Shown piece by piece: positions 44,353-47,060 of a DNA stretch of 64,000 nucleotides (the stretch's first letter is position 1; each line of letters opens with the position of its first letter). A program made the position numbers and the translations under genes. The DNA is from an uncultured virus (IMG/VR IMGVR_UViG_3300032093_000107) (taxonomy: Duplodnaviria > Heunggongvirae > Uroviricota > Caudoviricetes), in the IMG/VR virus record IMGVR_UViG_3300032093_000107. One strand, written 5' to 3'. The notes under the pieces are model-generated. The model saw only the letters and a list, made by a program, of their open reading frames with translations. It did not search any database and was not told the origin of the DNA.

Positions 44353-45345
44353 CCTTCAACTGCCTAGACAACTCTAGTCGATTGTCGGGTCTTAGTTAAA
44401 AACTCTTTTAACTCGCTCGCTTCACCTTCAACTGCCTAGACAACTTTAGTCGATTGTCGGAATTTGACCTTTGTACCTACTAGAGCGTCTAAATCTAGCC
44501 TTCAACTGCCTAGACAACTCTAGTCGTTTGTTGGAATTGATAAGAGAAGAGTATAAGGTCTACTGCACACCCTTCAACTGCCTAGACAACTCTAGTTATT
44601 TGTCGGGGCATAAGCAAAAAGGTAATGAAAACAAAACTACAGGCATTAACCTTCAACTGCCTAGACAACTCTAGTCGTTTGTCGGTATCGGATCACCTAT
44701 AGATAACACATATAGCTCACCACTTCAACTGCCTAGACAACTCTAGTCATTTGTCGGCGATTAGTGATCCGTCCCACCCGGCCTTTAACTGCACCCTTCA
44801 ACTGCCTAGACAACTCTAGTCGTTTGTCAGTCCTGCATAATGCCAGTCGAGATGATTGGGGTCAACCTTCAACTGCCTAGACAACTTTAGTCATTTGTCA
44901 GTTACATACGCAGCAAGGCAAGCAACGTAAATTCTCCTTCAACTGCCTAGACAACTCTAGTCACTTGTCGGACGGATTGAAGATACCCAACGCTTTAACC
45001 ATTACTCAACCTTCAACTGCCTAGACAACTCTAGTCGTTTGTCGGTCGGCAACATTACCGCTACTTGTTCGGGGAAGTAAACCCTTCAACTGCCTAGACA
45101 ACTCTAGTCGTTTGTCGGAATGAGATTCTCTTACAACTCCGACGGCAAAAACAACCTTCAACTGCCTAGACAACTCTAGTCGTTTGTCGGTTCCCTGATA
45201 TCCCCAGTAGTGCTGGAACGCGAAAGTAAACCCTTCAACTGCCTAGACAACTCTAGTCGTTTGTCGGGCCATGGGATAGGCAGTAAGCTGTAAGAGCGTC
45301 TAGTATCTCCCTTCAACTGCCTAGACAACTCTAGTCGTTTGTCGG
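44353..45345 (-). CRISPR. CRISPR array, 14 repeats of 36 nt and 13 spacers of 34-43 nt
   Basis: Minus-strand repeat CCGACAAACGACTAGAGTTGTCTAGGCAGTTGAAGG. Plus-strand starts: 44353, 44425, 44499, 44571, 44650, 44722, 44795, 44866, 44936, 45010, 45083, 45155, 45232, 45310. Variants lie toward the left end, so the leader is on the effector side. Confidence 0.97.
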
Positions 45346-45413
45346 GGGCTTCTCTCAAAGCCAAGCCACGAAAGGAATTAAGGGCAAAGTTGCGAGAGTA
45401 AGCACCGATCCAA

Positions 45414-47060
45414 TTACCAGATGGTTAATTGAACCGAATCAATAGGCTGAGATACCTTCTCTGATTGATGTCGAGGATCTTTAATTGTCAAGGTACTAAA
45501 GTTGTCTAGGCAGTTGCCCCCTTTTACGGGAGGGTTAATGGGTGGATCGCTCCGTTCCCTTTCTGCTTCACAAGTACCCTTGGGACTTCCACAGACGTAA
45601 GCCAGTAAACTGACTGCTTTCCCCAACAAGGAAGGGTAGCTAAGAAGCGAACTCCTTAATACACCTATCGTACTACTAATAAGAGAAAGTGTCAAGATAT
45701 TTTTTGCTGCGTTTTCGTCAGCATTTGCAGAATAGCCACAGGACACACAGATAAACTCGGATTGAGACTTTCTGTTATCCTTGTGCTTGTGTCCACAATT
45801 AAAGCAAGTCTGGGAAGTATATTTAGGATTAACTAGAACTACTCGCCCTCCTTTCTCTTCGGCTTTATAAATCAATTGCCTTTTGAGTTCCCCAATCCCC
45901 TGATCTAAAATAGATTTGTTTAGTCCTGATTTAGCAGAAGCTCCATTATGGGCATAAGTGCCATCCTCATTTTCCTTTACTCCTGCTCGCTTGGTCATGT
46001 TTTTAAGCTTTAAATCCTCCATGGCAATATGGGAATACTTCTGAGTCAATTTGTGGCTAACTTGATGTAGATACCCTGCCCGACGGTCTTTAATTTGTTC
46101 GTGAAGCAATGCTAATTTTTCTTTGCTCTTAAGATAATTAGCCGAGCCTTTTTCTTGCCTTGCCATTTTTCTTTGTAAGTGAGCAATCTTTCTTTCTTTA
46201 TTCCGATAGTAAGCTTTAGTCTCAATATGCCTTCCCTCACTATCAGTGTAAAGATTGACACATCCTACATCAATTCCTATCTGTCTGTCGGAAGGAAAGT
46301 GCATAGGAACAGGGAGATTAATTGTAAGGTGCAAATAATAGCCAGATGCCTTTCTAACTATAGATGCCATTCTTACGTCGGATTCTTTTGATAGTCGATT
46401 GATATCGTCAATGACCAACAGCCCTATCTGCTTATTAAGAAATATCCCACTATCTCGAATTTTAATTAGAGTAGGATGCCCAACTATTAAGCTTTGTACT
46501 GAGTCTAACTTTCCTTTGTACTTAGGGAATCCTCTGATGCCTTTTTTTGCAGTCTCAAACGCTTTTGAAATAACATAACGATAAAAGCACCCTCTGAACT
46601 CCGATCCAATCTCAAATATTTTATCAGCTAAATCAGGATAAAAATATTTTTTAAGAGCCTCCTTATCAGGGGGTTTAGTTGTGTGCTTTTTAGCGTCAGG
46701 ATTGCCTAGATATGGACGTTTTTTCCTTTCCTCTAACTTAAGCAAAACGTATTCCTTTTTGTTTTTTAGATAAGCTATTTTGCAGCAAGGATTCCCTACC
46801 AATAGTTTTGTCTTGTCCTTGGGTAGTTTTTCGATATGAGGGAAGCTTGAATACAGACTAAGATAAGAAGTTTCCCAAAACTCAGGGGAAAACTCCTTAA
46901 ACTCAAACTTATCCCTTAGTCGTCTTTGGTTAACTTCCTCTTGTAATCCTACGGCTAAATTCCAAAGATACTTCAATAGGCGCATCTTTTCGTCAATTAA
47001 TGACTGCTGCTCCTCGGTTAGGGTTAGCCTAAATTTAACTACCCTTGTCATATTTTCCAT
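45414..47060 (-). CDS. c2c8: TnpB-derived type V CRISPR effector, C2c8/V-U2-like (about 548 aa)
   Basis: RuvC-I IGIDVG, RuvC-II IAMEDL, Zn finger CFNC/CVSC, RuvC-III NADENAAKNI. The N-terminal insert EFSPEFW..SY...LLVGNPCCKIAY matches recalled cyanobacterial C2c8. Stop is 68 nt from the first repeat. GAGGA RBS before ATG 47060. Confidence 0.85.
   Translation of the reverse strand: MENMTRVVKFRLTLTEEQQSLIDEKMRLLKYLWNLAVGLQEEVNQRRLRDKFEFKEFSPEFWETSYLSLYSSFPHIEKLPKDKTKLLVGNPCCKIAYLKNKKEYVLLKLEERKKRPYLGNPDAKKHTTKPPDKEALKKYFYPDLADKIFEIGSEFRGCFYRYVISKAFETAKKGIRGFPKYKGKLDSVQSLIVGHPTLIKIRDSGIFLNKQIGLLVIDDINRLSKESDVRMASIVRKASGYYLHLTINLPVPMHFPSDRQIGIDVGCVNLYTDSEGRHIETKAYYRNKERKIAHLQRKMARQEKGSANYLKSKEKLALLHEQIKDRRAGYLHQVSHKLTQKYSHIAMEDLKLKNMTKRAGVKENEDGTYAHNGASAKSGLNKSILDQGIGELKRQLIYKAEEKGGRVVLVNPKYTSQTCFNCGHKHKDNRKSQSEFICVSCGYSANADENAAKNILTLSLISSTIGVLRSSLLSYPSLLGKAVSLLAYVCGSPKGTCEAERERSDPPINPPVKGGNCLDNFSTLTIKDPRHQSEKVSQPIDSVQLTIW
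45495..45645 (-). ncRNA. Putative tracrRNA/omegaRNA-like scaffold overlapping the effector 3' end
   Basis: Anti-repeat at 45495-45516 (21/22 complementary to the consensus repeat); upstream ACGTCTGTGGA...TGAAGCAGAA motif as at tnpB 3' ends; boundaries approximate. Confidence 0.7.

Follow-up and report, generated by a model that had tools for sequence, protein, structure and literature searches.

A 64 kb stretch of phage DNA (the window; IMG/VR record IMGVR_UViG_3300032093_000107, from an uncultured virus of the Caudoviricetes) carries on its minus strand the gene for a TnpB-like protein (the effector), followed by a CRISPR array. We consider it likely that the two form a stand-alone type V CRISPR-Cas locus of a freshwater tailed phage, in which a divergent C2c8 (type V-U2) nuclease with a TnpB-like gene layout works by the mechanism outlined below. 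To judge from its sequence, the locus is a real and probably active phage-borne type V system of the V-U2/C2c8 kind. A phage-borne V-U2 system was already published in 2018, for the cyanophage CL131, and the locus is not a new kind of system. New here are a candidate trans-activating CRISPR RNA (tracrRNA) in the 3′ tail of the effector gene, population evidence of turnover at the leader end of the array, and a conserved C-terminal motif.

The ωRNA of TnpB is cut from the 3′ end of its messenger RNA (mRNA). In the mechanism that we propose, the minus strand would be transcribed through effector gene, tracrRNA and array, and the tracrRNA would either start from its own promoter (45695→45667) or be cut from the 3′ end of the mRNA. 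Extending from about 45660 to 45464, it would pair through its 3′ anti-repeat with nucleotides (nt) 11-32 of each repeat. Processing of the duplex would remove the variable first ~10 nt of the repeat and leave a mature guide in which the spacer comes after ~25 nt of repeat with AAGG at their end. Effector, tracrRNA and CRISPR RNA (crRNA) would together cut the double-stranded DNA of a competing phage, plasmid or host element next to a protospacer-adjacent motif (PAM), and new spacers would enter at the effector-proximal leader, inserted by the adaptation module of the host.

The effector gene and its CRISPR array

The array consists of 14 direct repeats of 36 nt with a start-to-start spacing of 70-79 nt, enclosing 13 spacers that are 34-43 nt long. 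On the minus strand, the direction of the effector, the repeat reads CCGACAAACGACTAGAGTTGTCTAGGCAGTTGAAGG and ends in GTTGAAGG; across the 64-kb window its 16-nt core was counted 15 times, where shuffled sequence would give 0.05. As looked for in a type V locus, the array adjoins the effector gene, the repeats starting 68 nt past the stop codon. The five repeats nearest to the effector (45010-45345) are identical, while eight of the nine distal ones carry one to three substitutions. The array had been described in just these terms in an earlier sequence-only reading (14 repeats with this end, 68 nt from the effector, the proximal five identical and the distal ones substituted), and the repeat alignment bears the description out. 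The repeat can fold into a hairpin of five base pairs with a 4-nt loop (CUAGA-GUUG-UCUAG). The G+C content of the spacers (42.5%) is near that of the phage (40.8%) and is little informative.

The effector gene starts with an ATG just preceded by GAGGA. Pfam domains OrfB_IS605 and Cas12f1-like TNB were found in the protein, and residues D264, E348 and D448, together with C419/C422/C438/C441 of a CxxC…CxxC zinc finger, were invariant in alignments of 16 and 41 relatives. This confirms the earlier description of a TnpB-family protein of ~548 amino acids with three RuvC acidic residues and a zinc finger. The ratio of nonsynonymous to synonymous differences (pN/pS) was 0.04-0.10 across the folded part of the gene, and the protein is therefore under purifying selection. 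An AlphaFold2 model of the effector had a mean predicted local distance difference test (pLDDT) score of 72, with residues 488-548 below 50 and thus predicted to be disordered, and its top Foldseek matches were Cas12p (first), TnpB (ISFba1, ISDra2) and Cas12f. As modelled, the effector has a TnpB/Cas12 fold with an intact RuvC triad and zinc finger.

The best NCBIfam model for the effector was C2c8 (NF038192), matched end to end (residues 6-428 against profile positions 1-456 of 457) with 295.2 bits, a score under the curated cut-off of 350 bits that counts against the assignment. On the same model, the protein of a sister lineage (P0001) scored 296.6 bits, the CL131 effector 450.8, the Microcystis-type protein of G207 491.5, the further proteins P0020, P0025, P0034 and P0039 470.3, 407.6, 370.9 and 351.0, respectively, and an ordinary TnpB (P0079) 154 bits. 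The nearest homologs were two proteins with 92-94% identity, followed by about 20 that share 43-46% identity across 87% of the query, among them one that NCBI names C2c8 of Microcystis; ordinary TnpBs aligned to the C-terminal half of the effector only. In a tree of 43 rows from a quick IQ-TREE search, with long branches and a midpoint root, 30 C2c8-type proteins formed a clade with a Shimodaira-Hasegawa-like approximate likelihood ratio test (SH-aLRT) value of 100, within which the window trio was sister to the Microcystis type (95) and CL131 lay in the other sub-branch. The effector thus falls inside a clade bounded by CL131 and the Microcystis-type C2c8 proteins. By these comparisons it is a divergent member of the C2c8 (V-U2) clade that does not reach the NCBI threshold: the C2c8/V-U2-like label given to it earlier holds as regards best model, end-to-end match and place in the tree, but not as regards the score. 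A search of genome contigs with the effector alignment keyed on generic TnpB patterns and brought up 79 mostly proteobacterial TnpB loci, which were uninformative here.

Candidate tracrRNA and C-terminal motif in the 3′ tail of the gene

The 3′ tail of the effector gene encodes a well-supported candidate, by sequence, for the tracrRNA of the array (Table 1). Codons 515-526 contain an anti-repeat that lies 159 nt ahead of the first repeat, on the strand of the array, and is the sole plus-strand copy of the repeat core in the 64 kb, where 0.05 would be expected. In an inverted-repeat search it paired with all 14 repeats; its core forms 22 pairs including one G·U, and is fully paired with the two repeats that read CTAAAG. 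The predicted duplex had an energy of -39.7 kcal/mol, compared with -23.0 ± 2.6 kcal/mol in 300 shuffles (z -6.5), and the corresponding duplex of L002, a contig from a related phage, had -41.3 kcal/mol (z -6.8). Like the tracrRNA-dependent type V systems with the layout of Cas12n, the locus has its anti-repeat on the strand of the array and upstream of it, and its tracrRNA region runs over the 3′ end of the open reading frame (ORF), where the disordered tail is encoded.

We argue that the anti-repeat is functional on the basis of a compensatory change, the pattern of repeat substitutions, low synonymous change and contigs from RNA libraries. The anti-repeat of the sister lineage (L002/L100, 93% protein identity) has ...TTTAGC as its end, against ...TTTAGT in the window, and nine of that lineage's 12 repeats read GCTAGAG, against ACTAGAG in the window, a compensatory replacement of an A-U pair by G-C. 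Fourteen substitutions were counted in the repeats of the window; 11 lie within the unpaired first 10 nt and two inside the 22-nt paired core, both G15→A, converting G·U to A-U. Synonymous divergence from L002 was 0.53 over amino acids 1-228, 0.29 over 229-460 and 0.15 in the tail, 461-548 (Fisher p 1e-4); the corresponding values for L098, another contig with the repeat, were 0.19, 0.14 and 0.016 (Fisher p 9e-4). The tail's synonymous divergence is therefore 3-10 times below that of the remaining gene. Conservation relative to L002 drops straight past the stop codon (39 of 59 positions identical), the ~40 nt after the stop being poorly conserved, whereas the 60 nt before the first repeat are conserved (54 of 60).

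A promoter-like site inside the ORF, just upstream of the presumptive 5′ end of the candidate, is invariant between the window and L002. Contigs from three metatranscriptome runs matched the locus: one of 159 nt was identical to 45464-45622, the anti-repeat region, and others lay on the array, at 44300-44473, 44352-44504, 45016-45118 and 45155-45253. The body of the effector ORF had no RNA-library contig, and in the DNA run X1 no contig lay on 44680-45309; such gaps in contig cover prove nothing.

Several observations weigh against the tracrRNA. The promoter scan gave eight sites where 5.6 were expected, which makes the promoter-like site weak evidence alone, and the RNA contigs are a hint only, since they come without strand or ends and may reflect DNA carry-over. 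The candidate tracrRNA by itself folded no better than shuffles (z -0.62), and an Rfam scan of it gave no real match and one at chance level. The covariation is thin, comprising one compensatory pair in two close lineages. At other V-U2 loci, the best duplex between this region and the repeat did not beat shuffles (CL131 z -1.1, G337 z -1.9, G207 z -1.0). The 5-bp hairpin of the repeat could conceivably permit a self-processed crRNA that needs no tracrRNA, and the table of a 2024 review lists V-U2 without a tracrRNA (PMC11641405).

These last points would suit a system that uses crRNAs only, its array processed via the repeat hairpin in the manner of type V-A and its anti-repeat the functionless relic of an inverted partial repeat. 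The description of CL131 likewise gives no tracrRNA and proposes a V-A-like handle (PMC6293099); the anti-repeat candidate of that phage is energetically non-significant, and the scaffold in the window is not unusually stable alone. One would hardly expect a relic to retain 22 of 22 pairs, to have a compensatory change in a sister lineage or to lie in a stretch of suppressed synonymous change. In addition, the repeat substitutions avoid the paired core, and the best duplex ends at a similar distance before the first repeat in four loci (142 nt in the window, 143 in L002, 134 in CL131 and 123 in G337), with the last three or four repeat nt free. We regard a crRNA-only system as unlikely. The similar position of the duplex is suggestive of tracrRNA use being perhaps general across V-U2, and the confinement of earlier tracrRNA searches to intergenic DNA may explain the reports of none in this group. 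If the tracrRNA reading is right, the locus offers a guide design: a tracrRNA of ~160-200 nt from the 3′ end of the gene, plus a spacer preceded by ~25 nt of repeat that close with AAGG.

The anti-repeat could also act in cis: paired with the first repeat of a read-through transcript, it would attenuate or time the expression of the array or the translation of the effector, and would build no guide. Anti-repeat and array are on one strand with no terminator-like site between them on that strand, and a consensus scan found no promoter-like site in the leader. The geometry, in which a scaffold upstream of the array has the anti-repeat as its 3′ end and four spacer-side nt stay free, fits that of the Cas12n tracrRNA. 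The tracrRNA of Cas12f has the same position and pairing geometry as described for Cas12n. The two roles are compatible and the present data fit both alike; that the anti-repeat serves in cis and builds no guide seems to us very improbable. With the anti-repeat in the ORF's 3′ tail, the locus holds more than effector and array, and its earlier description as minimal stands for the lack of adaptation genes but not for these further parts.

Besides the candidate tracrRNA, the tail encodes a conserved C-terminal motif. The effector ends in ...VQLTIW in the window, ...VQLTLF in the sister lineage and ...DQLTIWDLL(A/D) in the Microcystis type, and P0034 has QLSLW near its end. The pattern QL.[LI][FW] was present within the last 20 amino acids of 16 of the 120 listed homologs, all from the C2c8 clade, and once elsewhere in 53,044 residues. 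QLT[IL][WF] sites were located in the window, at L003 5628-5645 and at about L084 6735. The motif codons differ at synonymous positions between lineages, and selection thus acts on the peptide. In CL131, codons for QLTLW and a stop lie 5 nt before the first repeat in a frame other than that of the annotated effector ORF, which stops 250 nt earlier; the QLTLW frame is open for ~60 codons and also spans the anti-repeat candidate.

Lying at the end of a disordered tail, the C-terminus in the window fits the form of the β-sliding-clamp motif Q-L-x-L-F. The transposase TnpA of IS608, a member of the IS200/IS605 family, binds the clamp DnaN (PMC5027513). Complex predictions of tail residues 489-548 (with alignment) and the DnaN of G207 scored 0.02, 0.72 and 0.02; the median fell below the mark in these control-free runs, which speak neither for nor against binding. 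Tentatively, the tail might thus be doubly used, its DNA encoding the tracrRNA and its last five residues forming a clamp-binding motif by which the effector would ride the host replisome clamp and meet replicating targets; we rate this as rather doubtful. Within this reading, the clamp link would have been inherited from IS200/IS605 elements and their replication-fork lifestyle. Among the papers listed by literature searches on this point, none linked a clamp motif to TnpB or Cas12. If the motif does bind the clamp, an RNA-guided nuclease would be tied to replication; the effector would be a replication-coupled CRISPR effector, and the second phage Cas12 to enlist a host factor after Cas12p with TrxA.

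Table 1. Features of the locus, with positions in the 64-kb window; arrows give the direction of reading.
Feature	Position	Strand	Basis or remark
Effector gene, 548 amino acids; putative divergent C2c8 (type V-U2)/TnpB-family RuvC nuclease with TNB zinc finger and disordered C-terminal tail	45414..47060 (47060→45414)	minus	ORF, Pfam, NCBIfam, AlphaFold2, Foldseek
Promoter-like site TTGACA-17-TACGAT, inside the ORF	45667..45695	minus	10/12 matches; best consensus match in 44150-47400
Candidate tracrRNA, ends approximate (5′ end placed by the promoter-like site); overlaps codons ~467-533	45464..45660	minus	Anti-repeat, RNA-library contig, low synonymous divergence
Anti-repeat; 22-nt core 45516→45495 against repeat nt 11-32, looser extension to 45482	45482..45516	minus	Inverted-repeat pairs I1-I14
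Codons for the C-terminal pentapeptide QLTIW, then stop (45416→45414)	45417..45431	minus	Motif conservation in the C2c8 clade
Leader, stop codon to first repeat, 68 nt	45346..45413 (45413→45346)	minus	New spacers at this end
CRISPR array	44353..45345 (45345→44353)	minus	14 repeats and 13 spacers; transcribed from the effector-proximal end
Trailer flank past the last, degenerate repeat	44300..44352	minus	Common to the shorter L098 array

Array turnover, spacer targets and phage context

Five metagenome contigs with the repeat were found. L099 and L101, as well as the IMG/VR contig L001, carry the 13 spacers of the window in the same order. L002 and L097 represent a related phage whose flanking helicase and tape-measure genes have 78-80% nucleotide identity to those of the window; in L002 the locus occupies the same site, between the homologs of the helicase/methylase and tape-measure genes, and holds 11 unrelated spacers, one of them duplicated. 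Over the effector region, L098 and the window are ~90% identical. In the L098 array, [U1][U2][S10][S11][S12] precede a terminal repeat and the trailer of the window; the window has S01-S09 at the leader end. The sharing of spacers at the degenerate far end, with different ones by the effector, puts the leader next to the effector and fixes which way the array is transcribed. This classic signature indicates, by comparison of sequences, that spacer acquisition is polarised at the leader end, and so backs what had earlier been surmised from the repeats of the window. Three phage lineages, differing by 10-20% in sequence, keep the locus at one genomic site. In the arrays of the sister lineage (L002 3606-4452; L100 1706-2628), spacers T01 and T03 are near-duplicates, and L100 holds two copies of T02 that differ in the first base; arrays thus also change through internal duplication. 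The 134-amino-acid gene past the trailer (window 43866-44270) has no counterpart in L098, where the trailer joins the homolog of the next gene directly.

The window holds no cas1 or cas2, so that an adaptation module of the host would be required, and the natural inference is that host Cas1-Cas2 insert the spacers. The host array next to the effector relative in G207 has a spacing of mostly 71-80 nt, which with its 37-nt repeat gives spacers of 34-43 nt, matching the lengths in the phage. A host array with the repeat of the phage was present in none of 401 sampled Cyanobacteriota genomes, which does not favour this part of the mechanism. The comparison of arrays amounts to population-level evidence that a phage array without cas1/cas2 still gains spacers at its leader end, and it bears on the borrowing of host adaptation machinery.

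Spacer targets were sought in several collections. Compared with the array-masked window and with L001-L003, the spacers of the window gave chance matches of 11-15 nt only, and the spacers of L002 gave nothing past one 14-nt match to the window. The whole array had three matches in 50,697 phage records (E about 4), one in 72,556 plasmids (E 0.9) and none in the nearest virus record, G001. The best match in the 401 Cyanobacteriota genomes, at 84% over 43 nt, took in repeat bases; its E value of 1.4e-4 per genome amounts to chance level once all 401 genomes are counted. Exact 24-mers of S01, S02, S04 and S10 occurred in IMG/VR only in the contig of the array itself and those of U1 of L098 had no match, a scan that mismatched protospacers would escape. 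With no protospacer match in the collections searched, no PAM was derived, a further point to be set against our reading. Spacer S10 (44607-44649) does read AAGG..ATGAAAACAAAACTA on the plus strand, as noted earlier; the suggestion built on it, that MKTKL resembles gene starts of this phage and that spacers target related phages, found no spacer match in any collection searched, nor did the expected protospacers with a 5′ PAM emerge from the phage, plasmid, cyanobacterial or IMG/VR searches.

The failure of any spacer to match a target would also agree with a regulator or a decaying remnant, that is, a protein that binds without cutting or is unused, beside a fossil array. The authors of CL131 raised a gene-regulatory role on account of the small size of V-U effectors (PMC6293099), and Cas12m, Cas12c and Cas12k work without cleavage (PMC11641405). 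The RuvC triad and the four zinc-finger cysteines are kept, though, the folded part is under purifying selection, the leader end of the array turns over between lineages and the locus holds its place in all three of them, so that we find a regulator or remnant highly unlikely.

Another explanation is an ordinary IS200/IS605-type TnpB that landed in the phage, its repeats being a multiplied ωRNA end with no spacer acquisition. The effector passed the NCBIfam model guided_TnpB (NF040570; 223.9 bits, cut-off 100), its best sequence matches among solved structures were ISDra2 TnpB and a designed TnpB-like nuclease, its guide scaffold overlaps the 3′ end of the ORF as in TnpB, and internal duplications occur in arrays (T01/T03; T02 in L100). 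On the other side, the effector missed the IS200_TnpB cut-off of 425 bits with 163.9 bits. Neither Cas1, Cas2, Cas4 nor the Y1 transposase TnpA was found among the 96 window ORFs of at least 80 amino acids (30 by PHROGs, 66 by Pfam), in agreement with the earlier statement that cas1, cas2, cas4 and tnpA are lacking. The lineages, 10-20% apart, all carry the locus at one site, the spacers are unrelated to each other and to the flanks, turnover at the leader end sits above a shared trailer, and the guide RNA is split into anti-repeat and repeats. A TnpB element of this kind is barely credible to us, and we retain the reading of a type V locus of the V-U2/C2c8 kind.

PHROGs matches in the window include a major head protein (16084-17031), the large terminase (21078-22535), the portal (61325-62746), a tail fibre and a tape measure of 2783 amino acids (35154-43505); these genes show that the window is phage DNA, and the locus is phage-encoded as had been said. 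The nearest virus record, G001, had no match to the effector. Directly upstream of the locus lies a gene (47642-49954; 78% nucleotide identity in L002) for a 770-amino-acid fusion of a helicase (SNF2/DEAD-type) and an N6/N4 DNA methylase. Glycosyltransferase genes (PHROG glycosyltransferase, GT17, galactosyl transferase) cluster with a methyltransferase gene at 23947-27503, and a tandem repeat of 492 nt (2.5 copies, 83% matches) spans 141-1377, within a tail-fibre-like ORF (3-1913).

As for the host, the best matches of the portal were Synechococcus siphophages (~26% identity), and the nearest chromosomal relatives of the effector were cyanobacterial. Small ORFs at 23630-23938, 55655-55960 and 32911-33822 match PsbU (photosystem II extrinsic protein, E 7e-6), DUF6464 and DUF5895. 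Portal, PsbU/DUF ORFs and effector relatives hint at a cyanobacterial host, and the earlier idea of such a host gains these hints and nothing beyond them. DNA-type runs with at least 55% of the sampled words of the locus numbered 17, from 13 studies (2017-2025), and were labelled freshwater or 'fungus' metagenome; the window may itself stem from one of these runs.

Comparison with known systems

The closest published counterpart is the Aphanizomenon cyanophage vB_AphaS-CL131, described in 2018 with a putative type V-U2 system made up of the TnpB-like ORF061 and a 10-spacer array of 36-nt repeats (PMC6293099). Its authors (Šulčius et al., AEM 2018/19) reported no tracrRNA, left the direction of the array undetermined and suggested a regulatory role (PMC6293099). 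As in the window, a phage carries the system, its TnpB-like effector gene precedes a same-strand array whose repeats are 36 nt long, and other cas genes are lacking. The CL131 effector, with 31% identity over 82% of the window query, was the only match in phage records to cover most of the query. A candidate anti-repeat lies 158 nt before the first repeat of CL131, compared with 159 nt in the window, but it is weak (18 of 21 pairs, z -1.1), and the effector ORF of CL131 stops before it. The two loci differ further in that the CL131 effector passes the C2c8 model (451 bits) and that of the window does not, in the sequence of the repeat and in the number of spacers (10 against 13). The phages are otherwise unrelated, CL131 having no DNA match to the window and being absent among the 15 listed tape-measure matches.

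Outside the phage lineage, the closest relatives are the chromosomal C2c8 proteins of the Microcystis type (NF038192; P0003-P0021, G207), with 43-46% identity over 87% of the query. They share with the window effector a long C-terminal tail ending in QLTIW, yet pass the 350-bit cut-off (470-492 bits, against 295). In G207, c2c8 is embedded in a class 1 locus, where cas6 comes before it and cas2 and then an array with over 80 repeats come after it, whereas the phage locus is self-contained; no anti-repeat to the array of G207 was detected (z -1.0), whereas the window repeat is matched to its own anti-repeat. The G207 contig (L084, G207:C209; 5700-8500) also contains solitary 3′ ends of the repeat (GGATTGAAAC) in the C2c8 tail (~6800) and ~130 nt past its stop (~6580). 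Each of these GGATTGAAAC copies precedes unique sequence, and they could be solo guides or insertion scars. The relative in G337 is a tail-less protein of 480 amino acids, and an array with over 70 repeats lies ~295 nt away from it. Two queries each turned up C2c8-type proteins in only one of the 401 sampled genomes.

In the table of the 2024 review, V-U2/C2c8 is the sole one of the five original V-U groups without a Cas12 letter, size or PAM (PMC11641405). The main text of a 2023 PNAS paper does not mention V-U2 itself, its apparent V-U2 matches being V-U24 (PMC10691335).

Phage-borne intermediates between TnpB and Cas12, with short arrays and without adaptation genes, have been described as CauTranC9 and other TranC clades (bioRxiv 10.64898/2026.03.27.714800), and Cas12p is a miniature phage Cas12 that recruits host TrxA (bioRxiv 10.1101/2025.01.20.633832). 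The sequence similarity of Cas12p and TranC to the window effector is confined to the RuvC core, and nothing in the window indicates a thioredoxin link.

Cas12n, a miniature effector whose C-terminal stretch is disordered and whose ORF is overlapped at its 3′ end by the tracrRNA region, likewise lies beside a CRISPR array (PMC12216341). Cas12n (type V-N, formerly V-U4/C2c9) thus resembles the window in layout but belongs to a different family: the match of the effector to the Cas12n structure 9j09 is confined to RuvC/TNB (residues 281-456, E 3e-22). The Cas12n systems are actinobacterial, with an AAN PAM (PMC11641405).

With TnpB and its ωRNA, as in ISDra2, the window shares the fold, the RuvC/TNB core and the placing of the guide scaffold over the 3′ end of the nuclease gene. 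It differs in having an enlarged N-terminal half (548 amino acids, compared with 408 in TnpB), no TnpA or signs of mobility, a guide split into a candidate tracrRNA and crRNAs, and an array of 13 spacers that turns over.

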